DNA from: Pyrobaculum sp. | Lineage (GTDB): Archaea > Thermoproteota > Thermoprotei > Thermoproteales > Thermoproteaceae | Assembly: GCA_046293555.1 (NCBI GenBank) | Contig: JBKBOT010000029.1 | Span: forward strand, 1-20,102 | Length of the DNA: 20,102 nt | Direction of reading: 5' to 3' | In this document: positions 1 through 4,914 of the stretch, one piece after another | Position numbering within the stretch: position 1 is the first letter of the stretch | Layout: every line of letters starts with the position of its first letter | Program-made: the position numbers and the translations under genes | The notes under the pieces: generated by a model | Told to the model about the DNA's origin: nothing | What the model saw: only the letters and a program-made list of their open reading frames with translations | The model's database searches: none

Positions 1-36
1 CGAGAACTATCTTACTCGCCCCGACTCACTGGCCAT
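1..36 (-). CDS. 5' end of a frameshift-dependent gene, probably argininosuccinate synthase (alternatively LysX/ArgX ligase); runs off the window
   Basis: SD-like GGAGG precedes ATG at 36. Frame 0 reads MASESGRVR* (TAG 9-7). The -1 frame after G-GGG reads G-A-S-K-I-V-L-(GNN) with no start codon, resembling the ArgG N-terminus KIVLAYSGG. Only about 7 codons are visible. Confidence 0.5.
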
Positions 37-208
37 AATCCTCCACGTCGCCTCTAAACTCCTCAAGCGTGGCGGAACCTCCCTTAAGCCTCACGATATA
101 TCTGGTGCCACATGTGGGACAGCTGGCAATCTCGCCGTCCATCACGTCGCTGGGGAGCTCGAACTCCGAGCCACAGACGTTACACTGAACTACCAGCTTC
201 TGGCTCAT
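26..208 (-). CDS. lysW: LysW amino-group carrier protein (Zn ribbon)
   Basis: CNVC...CPTC motifs, acidic composition, C-terminus EDYGQ (canonical EDWGE), next to lysZ/lysY. Start placed at ATG 208, 27 nt from the start of the TATA box at 235, rather than at 217. Confidence 0.9.
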   Translation of the reverse strand: MSQKLVVQCNVCGSEFELPSDVMDGEIASCPTCGTRYIVRLKGGSATLEEFRGDVEDYGQ

Positions 209-227
209 GGGGGACATGTGGGACCTA

Positions 228-240
228 TATATAAACTTAA
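228..240 (-). promoter_or_regulatory. Internal TATA promoter for lysW and the downstream gene, overlapping the lysZ stop codon
   Basis: Minus strand TTAAG-TTTATATA, with ATG 27 nt downstream of the TATA start (leaderless geometry). Confidence 0.7.
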
Positions 241-1010
241 CGTATGTGCGTGCCGGCGCCAGCCAGCGCCGCGTCTATAGGCCTCTCCACAAGGCCGCTT
301 GAGATCACCACCTCTACCCCACCTCTAGCCGCCTCTGCCGCCATGAGGAGTTTTCTCCGCATGCCGCCCCACACCCCGTCCGATTTAGCCAACGCCTCTG
401 CCTCCCCCGCCGTAAGCCGCGGCACAACTCTGCCGCCAACCAACACGCCGTCGACGTCGCTGAGGATAACAAGCCTCTCCGCGCGGCTTCTCGCAGCCAC
501 CTCAAAGGCCAGCTGGTCCCCATCTACGTTTAGCAGCTCGCCTCTCTCAGAGAGGGCTATGGGGGCTAACACCTTTAGGGGGGGCGGCGCCAGCTTGTTG
601 ACATCTACCTCTGTTATACGGCCCACATAGCCGCCGTCTACCACCCTCTGCCGCCCCCTCTCGTCTACTACCAACACCCTCTCCTTCCGCCTGGCTTTAA
701 CCACGCCGCCGTCTGCGCCCGTGAGGCCCACAGCCTCTACCCCCGCCGCGTTTAGAAAAGCCACGATGTACTTATTGACCCAAGACATAGCCATGACGAA
801 AATCTTTAAGGTCTCGTAGTCCGTATAGCGGCTCACCACGCCGCCTGGGTGAGTTAAAAACCTGGGCTCTAACCCCACCCTCCTCAACAGCTCATTTACG
901 TAACACCCCCCGCCGTGTATCACAACGCTGTCTATATGGCTGGCTAAGTTAGAGAGGGCTTTGGTGGGGTCTTTACAGAAGACAGACCCCCCTATCTTTA
1001 CCACCATCAT
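237..1010 (-). CDS. lysZ: [LysW]-aminoadipate/[LysW]-glutamate kinase
   Basis: [27 protein letters not shown] and GGMRRKL motifs of the ArgB/LysZ amino-acid kinase family; ATGA overlap with lysY. Confidence 0.92.
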
Positions 1011-2062
1011 ACCGGCGCCAGCGGCGTCTGCCCAAGCCCCTCGTCTTCTGGAAAGCCCATGGCTATGTTAAAGGCCTGTACCGCCTGCCCCGCTGCGCCC
1101 CGCACCAGGTTGTCTATAGCGGCGAAAGTCACCACGCGGCTTAGCCTGACGTCTAGCTCAAAGCCTATATCCGCCATGTTTGACCCCAGTACGTACTTCA
1201 CGTTGGGGTATCTAGACAGCCCCAGCCGGTCTTTCACAAGGCGGATAAACCTGGAGTCGCCGTAGAGAGACCGGTAGTATTTCCACATGTCGGCCTCCGT
1301 GGGGAGCCTCTCTGTATACACGTGGCCAGAGGCGAAGATGCCCCTCACCAGGTCGACGGCGTGTGGGGTAAAGGCCACCCTCACGGGCCTTCCAGCCAGT
1401 AGGCTTAGCTCCTGCTCGATCTCGGCAATGTGGCGGTGGTGTACAGGCTCGTAGGGCCTCACCACATATGTCCTAAAGCTATGTAGATCCACCACGGAGC
1501 CCTCGGCCCCCGCGCCGCTGGAGCCAATCTTGGCGTCTACTACAGGCGGCGTCTGGCCGACAACGCCGTGTTTAGCCAGGGGGGCCAACATGAGGATAGA
1601 CGCCGTGGCCATACAGCCCGGGATAGCCACCAGCCTCGCCCCAACGAGCTCCTGTCTATGTAACTCCGGCAGGCCGTAAACAGCTTTAGCCAGGAGGTCT
1701 GGATATGGATGCGGCTGGGGCCACCTGTACCACTCCACATATGCGTCCGGGTCCTTTAGCCTAAAGTCTGCGCTGAGGTCAAACACCGCGGCGCCGGATT
1801 CATATAACGTGGGCACCCATTTTACCGACTCGCCGTGGGGGAGGGCGAGGAAGACCACATCTGCCTTCAACGCGGCGTCGACCGTGGGCTCTACGAACTT
1901 GAGCTGGGTGAAGCCCCGGAGGTGTGGATGTACCCTATAGACGTACTCCCCCCTGAACTTTCTAGAGGTGGCGCAAGCCACCTCCACCTCCCCGTGTTGG
2001 AGGAGGAGTCTCAACAGCTCCCCCCCAGTGAAGCCAGAGGCGCCTACAATACAGACCCTCAT
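1007..2062 (-). CDS. lysY: [LysW]-aminoadipyl/glutamyl-phosphate reductase (ArgC family)
   Basis: GASGFTG Rossmann motif, LALPHG, DLSADFR, YGLPE, PGC active site, [19 protein letters not shown]. Confidence 0.95.
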
Positions 2063-2729
2063 AGCAGCTCGGCCAACAGGAGTGCCTCCTCTCTATCTAG
2101 AGGCGGCACGGGGTCCACGTCTATGACGTACCACCTCTCCCCATAGTCGCCCAGCGTCACCCTGGCGTATTGAAGCTCCAGGTAGGCCAACAGGTCTGCC
2201 ACAACGCCGACTGCGTTTCTGGCGGTGGCAAATACGGTCTTTACGCCGCGGGGCCTCGGCACCACTATAGACGCCCTGGCTAGGGGGTTTTTCATATACA
2301 TCCGGTGCTCCACCACGCTTTTTGCCCCCTCCACGCTTGTCACCACGCCGTCTAGGCCAAGCCTCCAGGCGGTTAGTAAAAGCCAGGGCCGCTCCACCTC
2401 CACCTTCTCCACGATGGCGTCAGATGAGATAATGGCGTGAGGCGGGCCGAACCTCTGTATCCAATAGGCCCTATTGAGGGCAGAGATTATAGAGGTGGGG
2501 GGGTTGACAACCCTCCTGGCCATAGAGCCATACGCCACGGCGAGGTAGGGATTTCGAGTTCGCAACACGGCGGCGTCTAGTACCCCACTTATGGCCACCT
2601 CGGAGATGTTTAACACAACTGCCTTCAGGCCTCTGGCGGAGAGAGCCTCAGCTATATACTTCTCGGAGATCGTGGGGCTGTCTGTAAGGATGTAAATCGC
2701 CCCACTTTCCCCTCTGGCCCCGAGTCCAT
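2059..2729 (-). CDS. Degenerate LysX/ArgX (RimK ATP-grasp)-like protein, about 223 aa, requiring a -1 frameshift near the start
   Basis: The frame of the 2616 ORF stays open upstream (AIYILTDSPTISEKYIAEALSARG, LysX-like N-terminus) with no ATG/GTG/TTG. EGAKSVVEHRMYMKN resembles LysX/ArgX. The GSWG loop and EVN motif are replaced (LGLDG, DVD). The leaderless ATG 2729 is out of frame. Confidence 0.7.
2652..2729 (-). promoter_or_regulatory. Frame-0 leader ORF MDSGPEGKVGRFTSLQTAPRSPRSI* carrying three tandem NNG-GGG-(Pro/Lys/Arg) putative -1 shift sites
   Basis: ATG GAC TCG GGG CCA GAG GGG AAA GTG GGG CGA TTT ... TAG (2654-2652). Each G-GGG slip lands in the lysX-like frame. Confidence 0.75.
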
Positions 2730-2748
2730 ATGCCCCACATTGGGGAGG

Positions 2749-2779
2749 TATATAAACTTTTGTAGAAAAAAGTTAAATA
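2749..2779. promoter_or_regulatory. Compact back-to-back divergent promoter pair
   Basis: Minus AAAAG-TTTATATA (2756-2749) and plus AAAAAA-GTTAAATA (2772-2779). Each TATA start lies exactly 27 nt from an ATG (2729 and 2799). Confidence 0.8.
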
Positions 2780-2798
2780 TGTCGCCCTTCTGGAGGCC

Positions 2799-2831
2799 AT
2801 GGATTCGGGGACAGCTCGCTACGTTGTGTGA
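2799..2831 (+). promoter_or_regulatory. Frame-0 leader ORF MDSGTARYVV* with a TCG-GGG-ACA(Thr) putative -1 shift site
   Basis: ATG GAT TCG GGG ACA GCT CGC TAC GTT GTG TGA. A -1 slip gives MDSG-DSSLRCVICG in the thrC frame. Confidence 0.75.
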
Positions 2832-3937
2832 TCTGCGGCGCCGAGTACGCCCCAGATTACCGACTCTATAGGTGCCCCAAATGTGGCGGCGTCCTGGAGG
2901 TAGTAGTTAAAGACAGGTACTGGGCCCCCTCGGGGAGAGGCGTGTGGCGATACGCCACAATGTTGCCACTAAGGCGCGGGGTGACGGCGGGGGAGGGAAA
3001 CACGCCGCTGGTGGAGTCCAGACTGGCGCCGGGGCTATACGTCAAATACGAGGGAGTCAACCCCACCGGCAGCTTTAAGGACCGGGGGATGGCCCTGGGG
3101 ATAACTGTGGCGAGAGAAAGCGGTGCAGACAAGGTGGTAGTGGCGTCTACAGGAAACACCGCCGCCTCAGTTGCCGCATATGCCGCCAGAGCCGGCATGA
3201 GGTGTTTTGTGGTACTCCCCAGAGGCAACGTGGCTAGAGGCAAGTTGGTACAGGCGGCTCTACACGGCGCAGAGATCGTGATGGTCAACGGCCTTTTCGA
3301 CAAGGCGCTGGAGTACGTCCTCGCCTACGGCACTAAATACGCCTACCCCCTCAACAGTTTTAACCCCTGGCGTCTAGAGGGACAGAAGACCACCGCCTTT
3401 GAGATATATGAGGAGTTAGGCTGTCCGGACTACGTGATAGTCCCTGTGGGAAATGCCGGCAACATCTCGGCCATCTGGAAGGGATTTAGAGAGCTGGCGG
3501 AGCTGGGGCTTTGCCACAAGCTGCCCAAAATGGTGGGCGTGCAGGCAGAGGGAGCGGCCCCGCTGGCCAAGGCGTGGGAGTTCGGGAGAGATACCCCCGT
3601 GTTTGTAGACGAGCCAGAGACAGTGGCCACAGCCATAAAGATAGGCAAGCCTATAAACTGGCCAAAGGCACTGGCGGCGGTAAGAGAGTCCGGCGGCTTC
3701 TTCACCACCGTGTCAGACGTCGAGATCCTAAAGGCACAGAGGCTGCTAGCCACGAGAGACGGGCTGGGGGCAGAGCCCGCCGGCGCCGCCCCCATCGCCG
3801 CCGCGTTGAAATTAAGGCTGCCGGGAACTGTGGCGGCCGTGGTGACCGGCCACGCCCTTAAAGACCCAGACGTGGTGGAGATAGAGGCCAGAGAGGTGAG
3901 AAATGCAGACGAGCTGGTAGAGCTGCTGGAAAGATGA
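2799..3937 (+). CDS. thrC: Threonine synthase (about 379 aa via -1 frameshift; the in-frame GTG at 2828 would lack the first Zn-ribbon Cys)
   Basis: NPTGSFKDRG PLP-lysine motif, ASTGNT, EGQKT, PVGNAGN, TGHALKD; N-terminal RCVIC...CPKC Zn ribbon begins upstream of 2828. Confidence 0.93.
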
Positions 3938-4914
3938 AGCCCGTCATAAAGATCGGCGGGTCCCTCCTGCGGACACCCGGCGATTTCCTCAAGGCGGCCA
4001 ACCACGTGTCGACATACAGGACGCCGGTGGTGGTGGTATCTGCGGTAAAGGGCGTTACAGACATGTTGATAGAGCTGGAAAAAACGCGGAGTTACCTCCT
4101 GTACGAGGAGATACTCCACAGACATATGTACATAGCGAGGCAGCTGGGGGTAGAGGAGAGAATAGCCGGCCTCCTGAAGGAGCTTGAGTCAAGCCTCAAG
4201 CTCCCCAAGGCGCCGTGGGCGGCAGACCACTTCGCCTCTTTTGGCGAGAGGCTTTCAGCCGCCGTCCTCCACGGCGTTTTGGAAAAACTAGGCCACCCCG
4301 CCAGGCTCTACATGGCGCCGATACTGACAGACAGCAATTTCGGCAACGCCTACCCCATACGGCTTGAACAAAAAGACGAGATTGTCCAACACGACGGCGT
4401 GGCGGTAGTCACCGGGTTTATTGGCAGAGACAAGGAGGGGAGATACACCACCCTGGGGCGAGGCGGTAGTGACTACACGGCGACATATATAGGCAGGGAG
4501 ATAGGCGCCAGAAAGGTGTCATTAGTGACGGACGCCCCCGGCGTCATGACTGCAGACCCACAGGAGGTAGAAGACGCCGAGGTGCTCTCCATGATGTCTA
4601 TAGACGAGGCCATAGAGGCCGCCAGGGCAGGGGCAAAGAACTTCCACCCAAAGACCTTCCTCCCAGCTATAGAAGGCGGCATGGCGGTAGAGGTCAAAAG
4701 CTACCACTCCAGGGGGACGCTCATAGCCCACATATATGCCCCACCGCCATATAAGCTAGTCACCAGATGTGGACAGGGCAGCTGCGTAGTGGGGCTGGCG
4801 GTAGAGGAGTTGACAAAACTGGGGGGCATACCTATAGGCCGCCACACCGCAAAACTGGCCATACCCCCACTACAGGCACATGAATATATAATAAAGCCCT
4901 ACTGGAAAAAATAG
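3934..4914 (+). CDS. lysC: Aspartate kinase (short, no clear ACT domains)
   Basis: KIGGS, VVVSA, SFGERLSA, TGFIG, TTLGRGGSDYTA, TADP, HPKT; ATGA overlap with thrC. Confidence 0.92.
   Translation: MKPVIKIGGSLLRTPGDFLKAANHVSTYRTPVVVVSAVKGVTDMLIELEKTRSYLLYEEILHRHMYIARQLGVEERIAGLLKELESSLKLPKAPWAADHFASFGERLSAAVLHGVLEKLGHPARLYMAPILTDSNFGNAYPIRLEQKDEIVQHDGVAVVTGFIGRDKEGRYTTLGRGGSDYTATYIGREIGARKVSLVTDAPGVMTADPQEVEDAEVLSMMSIDEAIEAARAGAKNFHPKTFLPAIEGGMAVEVKSYHSRGTLIAHIYAPPPYKLVTRCGQGSCVVGLAVEELTKLGGIPIGRHTAKLAIPPLQAHEYIIKPYWKK

Follow-up and report, generated by a model that had tools for sequence, protein, structure and literature searches.

Out-of-frame leaders with G-GGG and an end-product codon on amino-acid biosynthesis genes of Pyrobaculum: a candidate amino-acid-sensing -1 frameshift regulon

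We analyzed three amino-acid biosynthesis genes (thrC, a LysX-like gene, and argG) located in the first 20102 bases of contig C29 (JBKBOT010000029.1) of a Pyrobaculum sp. draft genome of 145 contigs and 1.75 Mb; this stretch, at its full length, is hereafter called the window. The ATGs at positions 2799, 2729, and 36 are each one base out of frame with the enzyme that follows, and each opens a short leader in which a codon ending in G and a GGG codon (NNG-GGG; the run of four is written G-GGG below) are followed by a codon for a product of the pathway, i.e., Thr for thrC, Pro, Lys, and Arg for the LysX-like gene, and Arg for argG. Both observations had been made in an earlier note on this DNA and were confirmed by direct reading of the sequence. 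The out-of-frame starts are real, and the three leaders are part of a much larger conserved set. We put at about 0.7 the probability that these leaders are amino-acid-sensing programmed -1 ribosomal frameshift sites, namely, feedback sensors of the hungry-codon type.

The leaders were surveyed in 29 genomes of one archaeal family (three genera, g1, g2, and g3), with the neighboring family f2 as an outgroup. Orthologous regions of the window genes were collected by a DNA search across 41 related genomes, and orthologue sets of the other leader genes were collected by protein searches of the 29 genomes of the family. Enzyme identities were taken from NCBIfam models, without reference to the A-site codons.

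The three leaders of the window

The leaders and the enzyme frames that they precede are composed as follows.

2773..2780, + strand: TATA-like box of thrC, an all-A/T 8-mer 26 nucleotides (nt) upstream of ATG 2799 (genome-wide peak, 25-29 nt)
2799..2831, + strand: thrC leader open reading frame (ORF), 0 frame, 10 codons plus stop (direct reading and orthologues)
2807-2810, + strand: putative thrC slip site, the G of TCG plus GGG, with ACA (Thr, 2811-2813) as the A-site codon
2810..3937, + strand: thrC enzyme frame, which lies at -1 to the leader and extends from the slip site to the stop (TIGR00260)
2749..2756, - strand: TATA-like box of the LysX-like gene, an all-A/T 8-mer 27 nt upstream of ATG 2729
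2652..2729, - strand: LysX-like leader ORF, 25 codons plus stop, with three tandem G-GGG (direct reading and orthologues)
2721-2718, 2712-2709, and 2703-2700, - strand: the LysX-like G-GGG runs, followed by CCA (Pro), AAA (Lys), and CGA (Arg), respectively
2059..2718, - strand: LysX-like ATP-grasp enzyme frame (-1 relative to the leader), first gene of an operon with lysY/argC and lysZ
7..36, - strand: argG leader ORF, 9 codons plus stop, with a putative slip site at 22-19 (the G of TCG plus GGG) and CGA (18-16) as the A-site codon
1..19, - strand: first bases of the argG enzyme frame, at -1 to its leader, which the contig end truncates

The thrC leader on the + strand reads ATG (2799-2801), GAT, TCG (2805-2807), GGG (2808-2810), and ACA (2811-2813) and ends at a TGA (2829-2831). 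The enzyme frame scored 262 bits against TIGR00260 (cut-off, 167), and the first positions of the NCBIfam ThrC models aligned to residues 2-4 past GGG, whereas the first ATG, GTG, or TTG of this frame, GTG 2828, lies downstream of the first Cys of an N-terminal Cys-x2-Cys zinc ribbon. In genera g1 and g3, all 22 loci compared share the frame break and G-GGG (the window counted; several of these genomes are single contigs), each with an ATG, one to four codons, and then the invariant string TCGGGGAC, which contains three positions that would be synonymous in the enzyme frame. The A-site codon of these loci was ACA or ACG, and 12 of the 22 had an additional G-GGG followed by ATT (Ile) upstream of the Thr site. 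Five thrC loci of the outgroup had ordinary in-frame starts.

The LysX-like leader on the - strand reads ATG (2729-2727), GAC, TCG, GGG, CCA, GAG, GGG, AAA, GTG, GGG, CGA and runs to a TAG (2654-2652). It was kept in 17 of 18 related loci, with two sites in L004, one in L021, and GGA at the first site in L006. The protein encoded in the -1 frame (219 codons) has its first canonical start at GTG 2616, and the public record of this protein begins there, 28 residues short. It gave no Pfam or NCBIfam match and no PDB sequence match of note. Its predicted structure in the Atlas matched LysX/RimK ATP-grasp clusters with a template-modeling score of 0.84 by query, and BLASTP matched it weakly to LysX (E value, 0.005). 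Thus, the earlier label of this gene is backed by structure and by a weak sequence match but not by family models, and the true LysX is encoded elsewhere in the genome, with its own Lys leader (AAA).

The argG leader on the - strand consists of ATG (36-34), GCC, AGT, GAG, TCG, GGG (21-19), and CGA (18-16), with a TAG at 9-7, and its ATG sits inside the 3' end of lysW. All 6 relatives compared have the same leader, which makes 7 of 7 with the window included. In these relatives the gene encodes argininosuccinate synthase (one was scored, giving 498 bits against TIGR00032, with a cut-off of 268), so that the gene formerly described as a probable argG is argG.

All-A/T 8-mers peaked 25-29 nt before the ATG in 743 long ORFs with ATG starts in the window's genome, and the box stood at 23-29 nt in the 14 leader ATGs that have such an 8-mer. 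A spacing of 27 nt had been given earlier for both thrC and the LysX-like gene; it is exact for the latter and 26 nt for thrC, both being within the genome-wide peak. The argG leader has no all-A/T 8-mer upstream, and a conserved TTTAAA or TTTAGA inside lysW, at promoter distance, may act as an internal argG promoter. Leaderless transcription was first described in this genus (PMC6028130).

RNA sequencing contigs of a finished relative (three runs, one sample) covered the thrC G-run and two to three of the LysX-like runs without an inserted letter. This answers, with four Gs rather than five, a check proposed in the earlier note, and it speaks against a dominant fifth G in the mRNA. The same contigs leave 67-100 nt of the intergenic promoter region uncovered, a break that is consistent with leaderless starts.

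The neighboring genes on the - strand are the following.

1007..2062, - strand: lysY/argC, N-acetyl-gamma-glutamyl-phosphate reductase family (TIGR01850, 410 bits), downstream in the same operon as the LysX-like gene
237..1010, - strand: lysZ, [LysW]-aminoadipate/[LysW]-glutamate kinase (NF010662, 268 bits; cut-off, 194), a bifunctional kinase that serves Lys and Arg synthesis
26..217, - strand: lysW carrier protein, whose 3' end holds the argG leader ATG and the TTTAGA/TTTAAA box

The start of lysW is likely the second ATG, at 208, because the TATA box lies only ~9 nt before ATG 217, compared with the usual ~27 nt before 208. On the + strand, an aspartate-kinase family gene (3934-4914) overlaps the thrC stop (ATGA), and therefore the thrC leader may gate entry to the whole aspartate family. 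For comparison, thrA of E. coli is controlled by a Thr/Ile leader.

A codon-to-pathway rule across the genome and the family

The pattern scanned for was an ATG with NNG-GGG no more than 15 codons on, a 0 frame that stops early, and a -1 frame that stays open for 100 codons or more. The scan without a promoter filter found 88 GGGG/-1 cases that had no upstream start in the enzyme frame, compared with 31-51 for control runs and shifts; with an upstream A/T-rich box it gave 59 rows, and all -1 ORFs were named by NCBIfam. A blind scan of the window's genome yielded 13 additional leader starts beyond the three of the window, listed here with their A-site codons and the orthologous loci that keep the leader.

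TrpB-like: TGG; 13/13 in the genus, one with a distant ATG or near GTG
TrpD: TGG; 13/13 in the genus
TrpRS: TGG; 5/6
Cysteine-synthase-like: TGT; 26/28, 4 with GTG-start leaders at the same promoter distance
CarA: CGA; 29/29
AroD-chorismate mutase: TAT (Tyr); 25/28
Transketolase N-subunit (aro cluster): TAT, then TTT (Tyr and Phe); 26/28
Prephenate dehydratase PheA: TTT (Phe); 27/29
LeuA: CTC; 28/28
Homocitrate synthase: AAA; 28/28, the 29th locus being masked at its 5' end
LysX: AAA; 26/26
IlvB: GTA (Val), then CTC (Leu); 28/28
Citramalate synthase CimA: ATT (Ile); 24/24; at a contig edge, found in the scan without the promoter filter

A genome-wide search of other biosynthetic genes had been called for in the earlier note, and it recovered trp, aro, leu/ilv, lys, arg, and cys genes as well as TrpRS, each with its own codon. 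In a relative, the genes for transketolase lie in a cluster with those of the aromatic amino acids (PMC3189178). With thrC and argG counted, the codon after GGG was cognate at 17 of 17 sites with a defined product in the window's genome. The product of the per-site chances is 10^-21.8, and none of 100000 shuffles reached 17 cognate sites (mean, 3.1; maximum, 11). The 27 remaining ORFs of the 59-row screen were annotated, and none was an amino-acid enzyme with a 5' leader; the other rows were unrelated genes with nearby in-frame starts, internal sites, or ORFs without a family. Rows for GlyRS and a 2-hydroxyacid dehydrogenase were rejected as leaders, the sites being internal and the genes starting upstream.

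Over all orthologue sets, 435 of 453 sites were cognate. Of the 18 others, 13 were thrC sites with an Ile codon, two were GGG within longer runs of G, one was a second site on CarA, and two were chance cases. Related genomes are non-independent samples, and the informative part is the synonymous changes and the changes in leader length: the A-site codons changed only synonymously (ACA/ACG, GTA/GTC/GTT, CTC/CTT, ATT/ATC, TTT/TTC, TAT/TAC, and TGT/TGC), and the leader length and the spacer codons varied while the sensed codon stayed cognate. IlvB leaders had Val, Leu, and then Ile sites in many relatives, and transketolase leaders, which have Tyr and Phe sites in the window's genome, had a Trp site too in most relatives. 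The frame break, G-GGG, and cognate codon that the earlier note proposed to look for in orthologues were thus kept, including in finished single-contig genomes. In family f2, no G-GGG leader was found on the six genes tested (ThrC, TrpB-like, TrpD, IlvB, CarA, and LeuA), the count for TrpB-like/TrpD being 0 of 7.

The enzyme frames largely lack conventional starts. In 329 of 332 leaders there was no ATG, GTG, or TTG in the enzyme frame from the leader ATG to the first site. Ten gene sets had no canonical start at the site, and the next one lay at a variable distance, with medians from 1 codon (AroD-chorismate mutase, a conserved TTG) to 33 codons; nine of the ten had no conserved start downstream either. 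The next canonical start of LeuA, ArgG, IlvB, and CarA falls beyond residues that are matched by the family profiles. Public records of orthologous LeuA proteins show five kinds of N terminus: some are truncated (one of these is labeled "with possible unusual start codon"), one (P0020) reads ATA as Met, some have starts placed upstream, in the promoter, and one follows the leader in the 0 frame before passing into that of the enzyme. The codon at the position of this ATA start varies among orthologues (ATA, GTA, ATC, ATT, GTG, and GTC).

Several other loci resembled the leaders in part. An unknown 114-residue protein (G000:C1 5554, + strand) and a KaiC/ArlH-like ATPase (C12 9619, + strand) each have an ATG-GGG leader and an A/T box, with GGT and GAA, respectively, after GGG; neither is linked to amino-acid synthesis, both have a GTG two codons past the site, and they may be ordinary genes. 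A Ham1/ITPase-like ORF (G000:C18 ~18387, + strand), named by its N-terminal residues only, shows ATG, GGG, and TTA with the -1 offset, has no upstream A/T box and no canonical start for 26 codons, and may either use the device outside biosynthesis or be a coincidence. In family f2, CarA (L377 and L378) and LeuA (L380 and L381) have no canonical in-frame start before the conserved N-terminal residues and no G-GGG leader. An out-of-frame ATG lies a short way upstream of each of the two CarA genes, and LeuA of this family may start at an ATT after a GGTGGG box.

Proposed mechanism and competing explanations

Based on the anatomy of the leaders, their conservation, the codon-to-pathway rule, the promoter geometry, and the four Gs in the RNA contigs, we infer a slip of the ribosome that depends on aminoacyl-tRNA supply and on closeness to the 5' end. 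The mRNAs would be leaderless or nearly so, with translation beginning at the promoter-proximal ATG (GTG in a few relatives), in a frame other than that of the enzyme. One to about twelve codons later, peptidyl-tRNA(Gly) would occupy GGG in the P site, with the end-product codon in the A site. Given ample cognate aminoacyl-tRNA, reading would go on in the 0 frame, and a peptide of 3-26 residues would be released without enzyme being made. When that aminoacyl-tRNA is scarce, the A site would stay empty, and tRNA(Gly) could re-pair one base back on G-GG, which is possible because the codon before GGG always ends in G. The A site would then present the codon one base back, which is GNN (Ala, Glu, Asp, Gly, or Val) in every case, and the enzyme would be translated. 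The predicted outcome is negative feedback on each pathway, in which shortage gives enzyme. Tandem sites would work as OR logic: Val/Leu/Ile for ilvB, Tyr/Trp/Phe for the aro cluster, Pro/Lys/Arg for the LysW operon, and Ile/Thr for thrC in many relatives.

The leaders share the basic layout of -1 frameshift sites, in which two frames overlap at a -1 offset and the start codon belongs to the upstream frame. At every site G-GGG stands directly before the sensed codon, the preceding codon ending in G; this serves as a slippery sequence on which a single P-site tRNA can re-pair perfectly, and it is not the classical X_XXY_YYZ heptamer of tandem slippage. No stimulatory element was seen, and no conserved 3' structure was found: the consensus energies for 22 LeuA and 20 CarA leaders were -6.0 and -1.3 kcal/mol, respectively, and covariation was almost absent. 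Slippage of a P-site tRNA beside a vacant A site is compatible with this, since a review describes that regime as set off by aminoacyl-tRNA limitation and independent of stimulatory elements (PMC8211752).

The competing explanation to be taken most seriously, although we regard it as unlikely, involves no frameshift: the enzymes would start in their own frame (at GTG for the Trp and Cys genes, at TTG for AroD, and at ATA or similar codons elsewhere), perhaps with GGGG as a Shine-Dalgarno (SD)-like signal, and the short ATG ORF would be an overlapping upstream ORF, regulatory or meaningless. Such starts are available in part, and the LeuA record that begins at ATA accords with them, as does the view that G_GG.G with the following G serves in E. 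coli as an SD sequence for an AUA in the -1 frame (PMC4066793). However, the gene sets without a canonical start at or conservedly after the site (AroD keeps its TTG) and the shifting codon at the LeuA "ATA" position argue against it, and it leaves unexplained why GGG stands directly before the cognate codon, why a G precedes it, and why the ATG is in frame with GGG at varying distances. Besides, a ribosome stalled on the leader would be expected to cover an overlapping GTG and lower expression during starvation, which is the wrong sign. A constitutive ribosomal frameshift, in which slippage at G-GGG occurs in a constant share of ribosomes regardless of amino-acid supply and so sets a low expression level, would equally account for the conserved frame break and slip site. 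We hold it to be improbable, because the identity of the next codon would then serve no use, whereas the cognate codons (17/17 and 435/453) are kept through synonymous change and the tandem sites match multi-product pathways.

Transcriptional slippage or editing that adds a fifth G, and thereby brings the ATG into frame, would yield the same protein, and G runs are typical places for polymerase slips. Messengers with extra or missing bases were not found in the RNA contigs of the relative, which in three runs had four Gs and 0 gaps at thrC and the inner LysX-like sites, a minor fraction being below the resolution of contigs; moreover, the run is only four bases long, and the cognate codon rule would be left unexplained. 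We therefore judge this explanation very improbable. An artefact, i.e., homopolymer assembly errors or decaying pseudogenes, might be suspected in a draft of 145 contigs, but the chance of it is practically negligible: assembly error is refuted by conservation of the same break in up to 29 genomes, several of them single contigs, and the enzyme frames, compared with curated family models, are unbroken and complete, with RNA contigs that match the DNA.

The hungry-codon frameshift, as originally suggested in the earlier note, is thus supported by the orthologues, the genome-wide scan, and the RNA contigs, and the following points weigh against it. All of the support is comparative and comes from related genomes that are not independent, and the RNA evidence consists of contigs, which drop rare variants and cannot show 5' ends. 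In 74 of 332 leaders, those with Trp and Cys sites, the enzyme frame has GTG at the site itself, and AroD-chorismate mutase has a TTG one codon after the site; therefore, those genes could start conventionally. Genus g2 has no leader on thrC, pheA, aroD, tkt, cys, and trpS; it has one on ilvB, leuA, carA, hcs, and cimA. In G009, AroD-chorismate mutase (L301) lacks the leader and has an ordinary in-frame GTG at the usual promoter distance, in line with an own-frame start. The G_GG.G tetramer was not prone to frameshifting in E. coli, the signal being ascribed to SD-like initiation, in an assay of A-site slippage in a bacterium (PMC4066793). The sensed codons are not rare except for CGA (2% of Arg codons). 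Run with its default settings, aragorn gave no credible tRNA-Gly, and relaxed settings gave only noise; the program probably misses intron-rich tRNAs. Finally, in-frame NNG-GGG is over-represented in ordinary genes (6385 observed in all long ORFs; observed/expected ratio, 1.71), and therefore G-GGG is not strongly slippery alone and its 5'-proximal context must matter. We would guess that the signal includes a location among the first ~14 codons of a leaderless mRNA; that such an extra factor is needed counts against the proposal as well.

Two general signs of the mechanism were tried and dropped: rarity of the sensed codons as a rule, CGA being the only rare one, and avoidance of in-frame NNG-GGG as a mark of slipperiness, the opposite having been found. 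Alongside the NNG-GGG excess, NNA-GGG is depleted in long ORFs (observed/expected ratio, 0.44), a codon-pair bias. The AroD-chorismate mutase gene of G009 is a natural "repaired" variant and a useful control.

Relation to known systems and significance

The nearest bacterial parallel is prfB, in which slow decoding of a stop codon in the A site gives the full-length product, release factor 2 (RF2), negative feedback on its own synthesis. As proposed here, slow A-site decoding makes the P-site tRNA slip at an early site, and the product relieves the shortage; prfB is named in this connection in PMC5009743 and PMC6028130. It differs from the archaeal leaders in that the shift is +1, the codon is a stop read by a protein factor, an upstream SD sequence acts as a stimulator, and a single gene is involved. 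The second parallel is the leader-peptide transcription attenuation of bacterial amino-acid operons (trpL, thrL, ilv, leu, and pheL). These attenuators also have a short ORF with codons for the regulated amino acid, stalling as the sensor, and mixed codons for multi-product pathways (Thr plus Ile; Val plus Leu plus Ile). They rely, however, on a terminator/antiterminator RNA switch and a separate leader peptide, whereas the archaeal leaders show no conserved structure, their ORFs overlap, one cognate codon is enough, and the leader would become the N terminus of the enzyme. Enrichment of a short leader in cognate codons is thus seen here (one to three per leader), and alternative hairpins are not: the leader overlaps the enzyme frame and so leaves no spacer for them, and no conserved structure was found. 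The pheL leader is one of those named in a review (PMC5009743) and also features in PMC3082878.

Besides frameshift and attenuation systems, the T-boxes of Gram-positive bacteria deserve comparison. A T-box riboswitch is one device that uses a specifier codon for each amino acid and binds uncharged tRNA. The likeness lies in the specifier codon and in the genes served, which are biosynthetic operons and aminoacyl-tRNA synthetases (TrpRS here); the difference is that in a T-box the uncharged tRNA binds to a long, structured leader RNA and transcription is what is controlled, whereas the archaeal genes have no leader RNA at all. The leftward (-1) hungry-codon frameshift of E. coli has the same vacant A site and single P-site slip and needs no structure (PMC8211752). 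There it is a starvation-induced error or laboratory phenomenon, whereas here it would be the programmed route to the enzyme; its natural extent and use are called unclear in the review cited above (PMC5009743). In Archaea, fucA1 of Saccharolobus solfataricus requires a -1 frameshift for its full-length enzyme (PMC1616953; PMC8211752), and it is given as the only -1 case reported in this domain by a 2021 review (PMC8211752). Its site is internal and joins two long ORFs, with no tie to amino-acid supply.

We would file the device as a variant of programmed frameshifting, in effect RF2 autoregulation crossed with leader-peptide attenuation. No description of amino-acid-sensing frameshift leaders was found in the full-text literature, subscription journals being outside its coverage. 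It seems reasonably probable from the comparative data that this family has replaced attenuators and T-boxes by a "frameshift attenuator" of 12-40 nt, with at least 16 starts that cover 11 amino acids (Thr, Ile, Val, Leu, Lys, Arg, Pro, Trp, Tyr, Phe, and Cys) plus TrpRS and are translated only on a slip, and that this is the first sense-codon-sensing frameshift regulon in any domain.

The leaders account for the inconsistent, truncated, or patched N termini of public records and point to their correction. If their role as the sense-codon sensors of an entire regulon is confirmed, they would form a new regulator class, a cis-acting one that works purely in the decoding center, without RNA structure or a protein factor. 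Hungry-codon frameshifting would turn from an error into a programmed sensor, and the number of archaeal -1 frameshift genes would rise from the one given in PMC8211752 to dozens per genome. The element is tiny and modular (a start codon, G-GGG, and a specifier codon) and could serve as a thermostable amino-acid-specific switch. The device, if true, would be a direct and testable answer to the question of how Crenarchaeota with leaderless mRNAs sense amino-acid supply.

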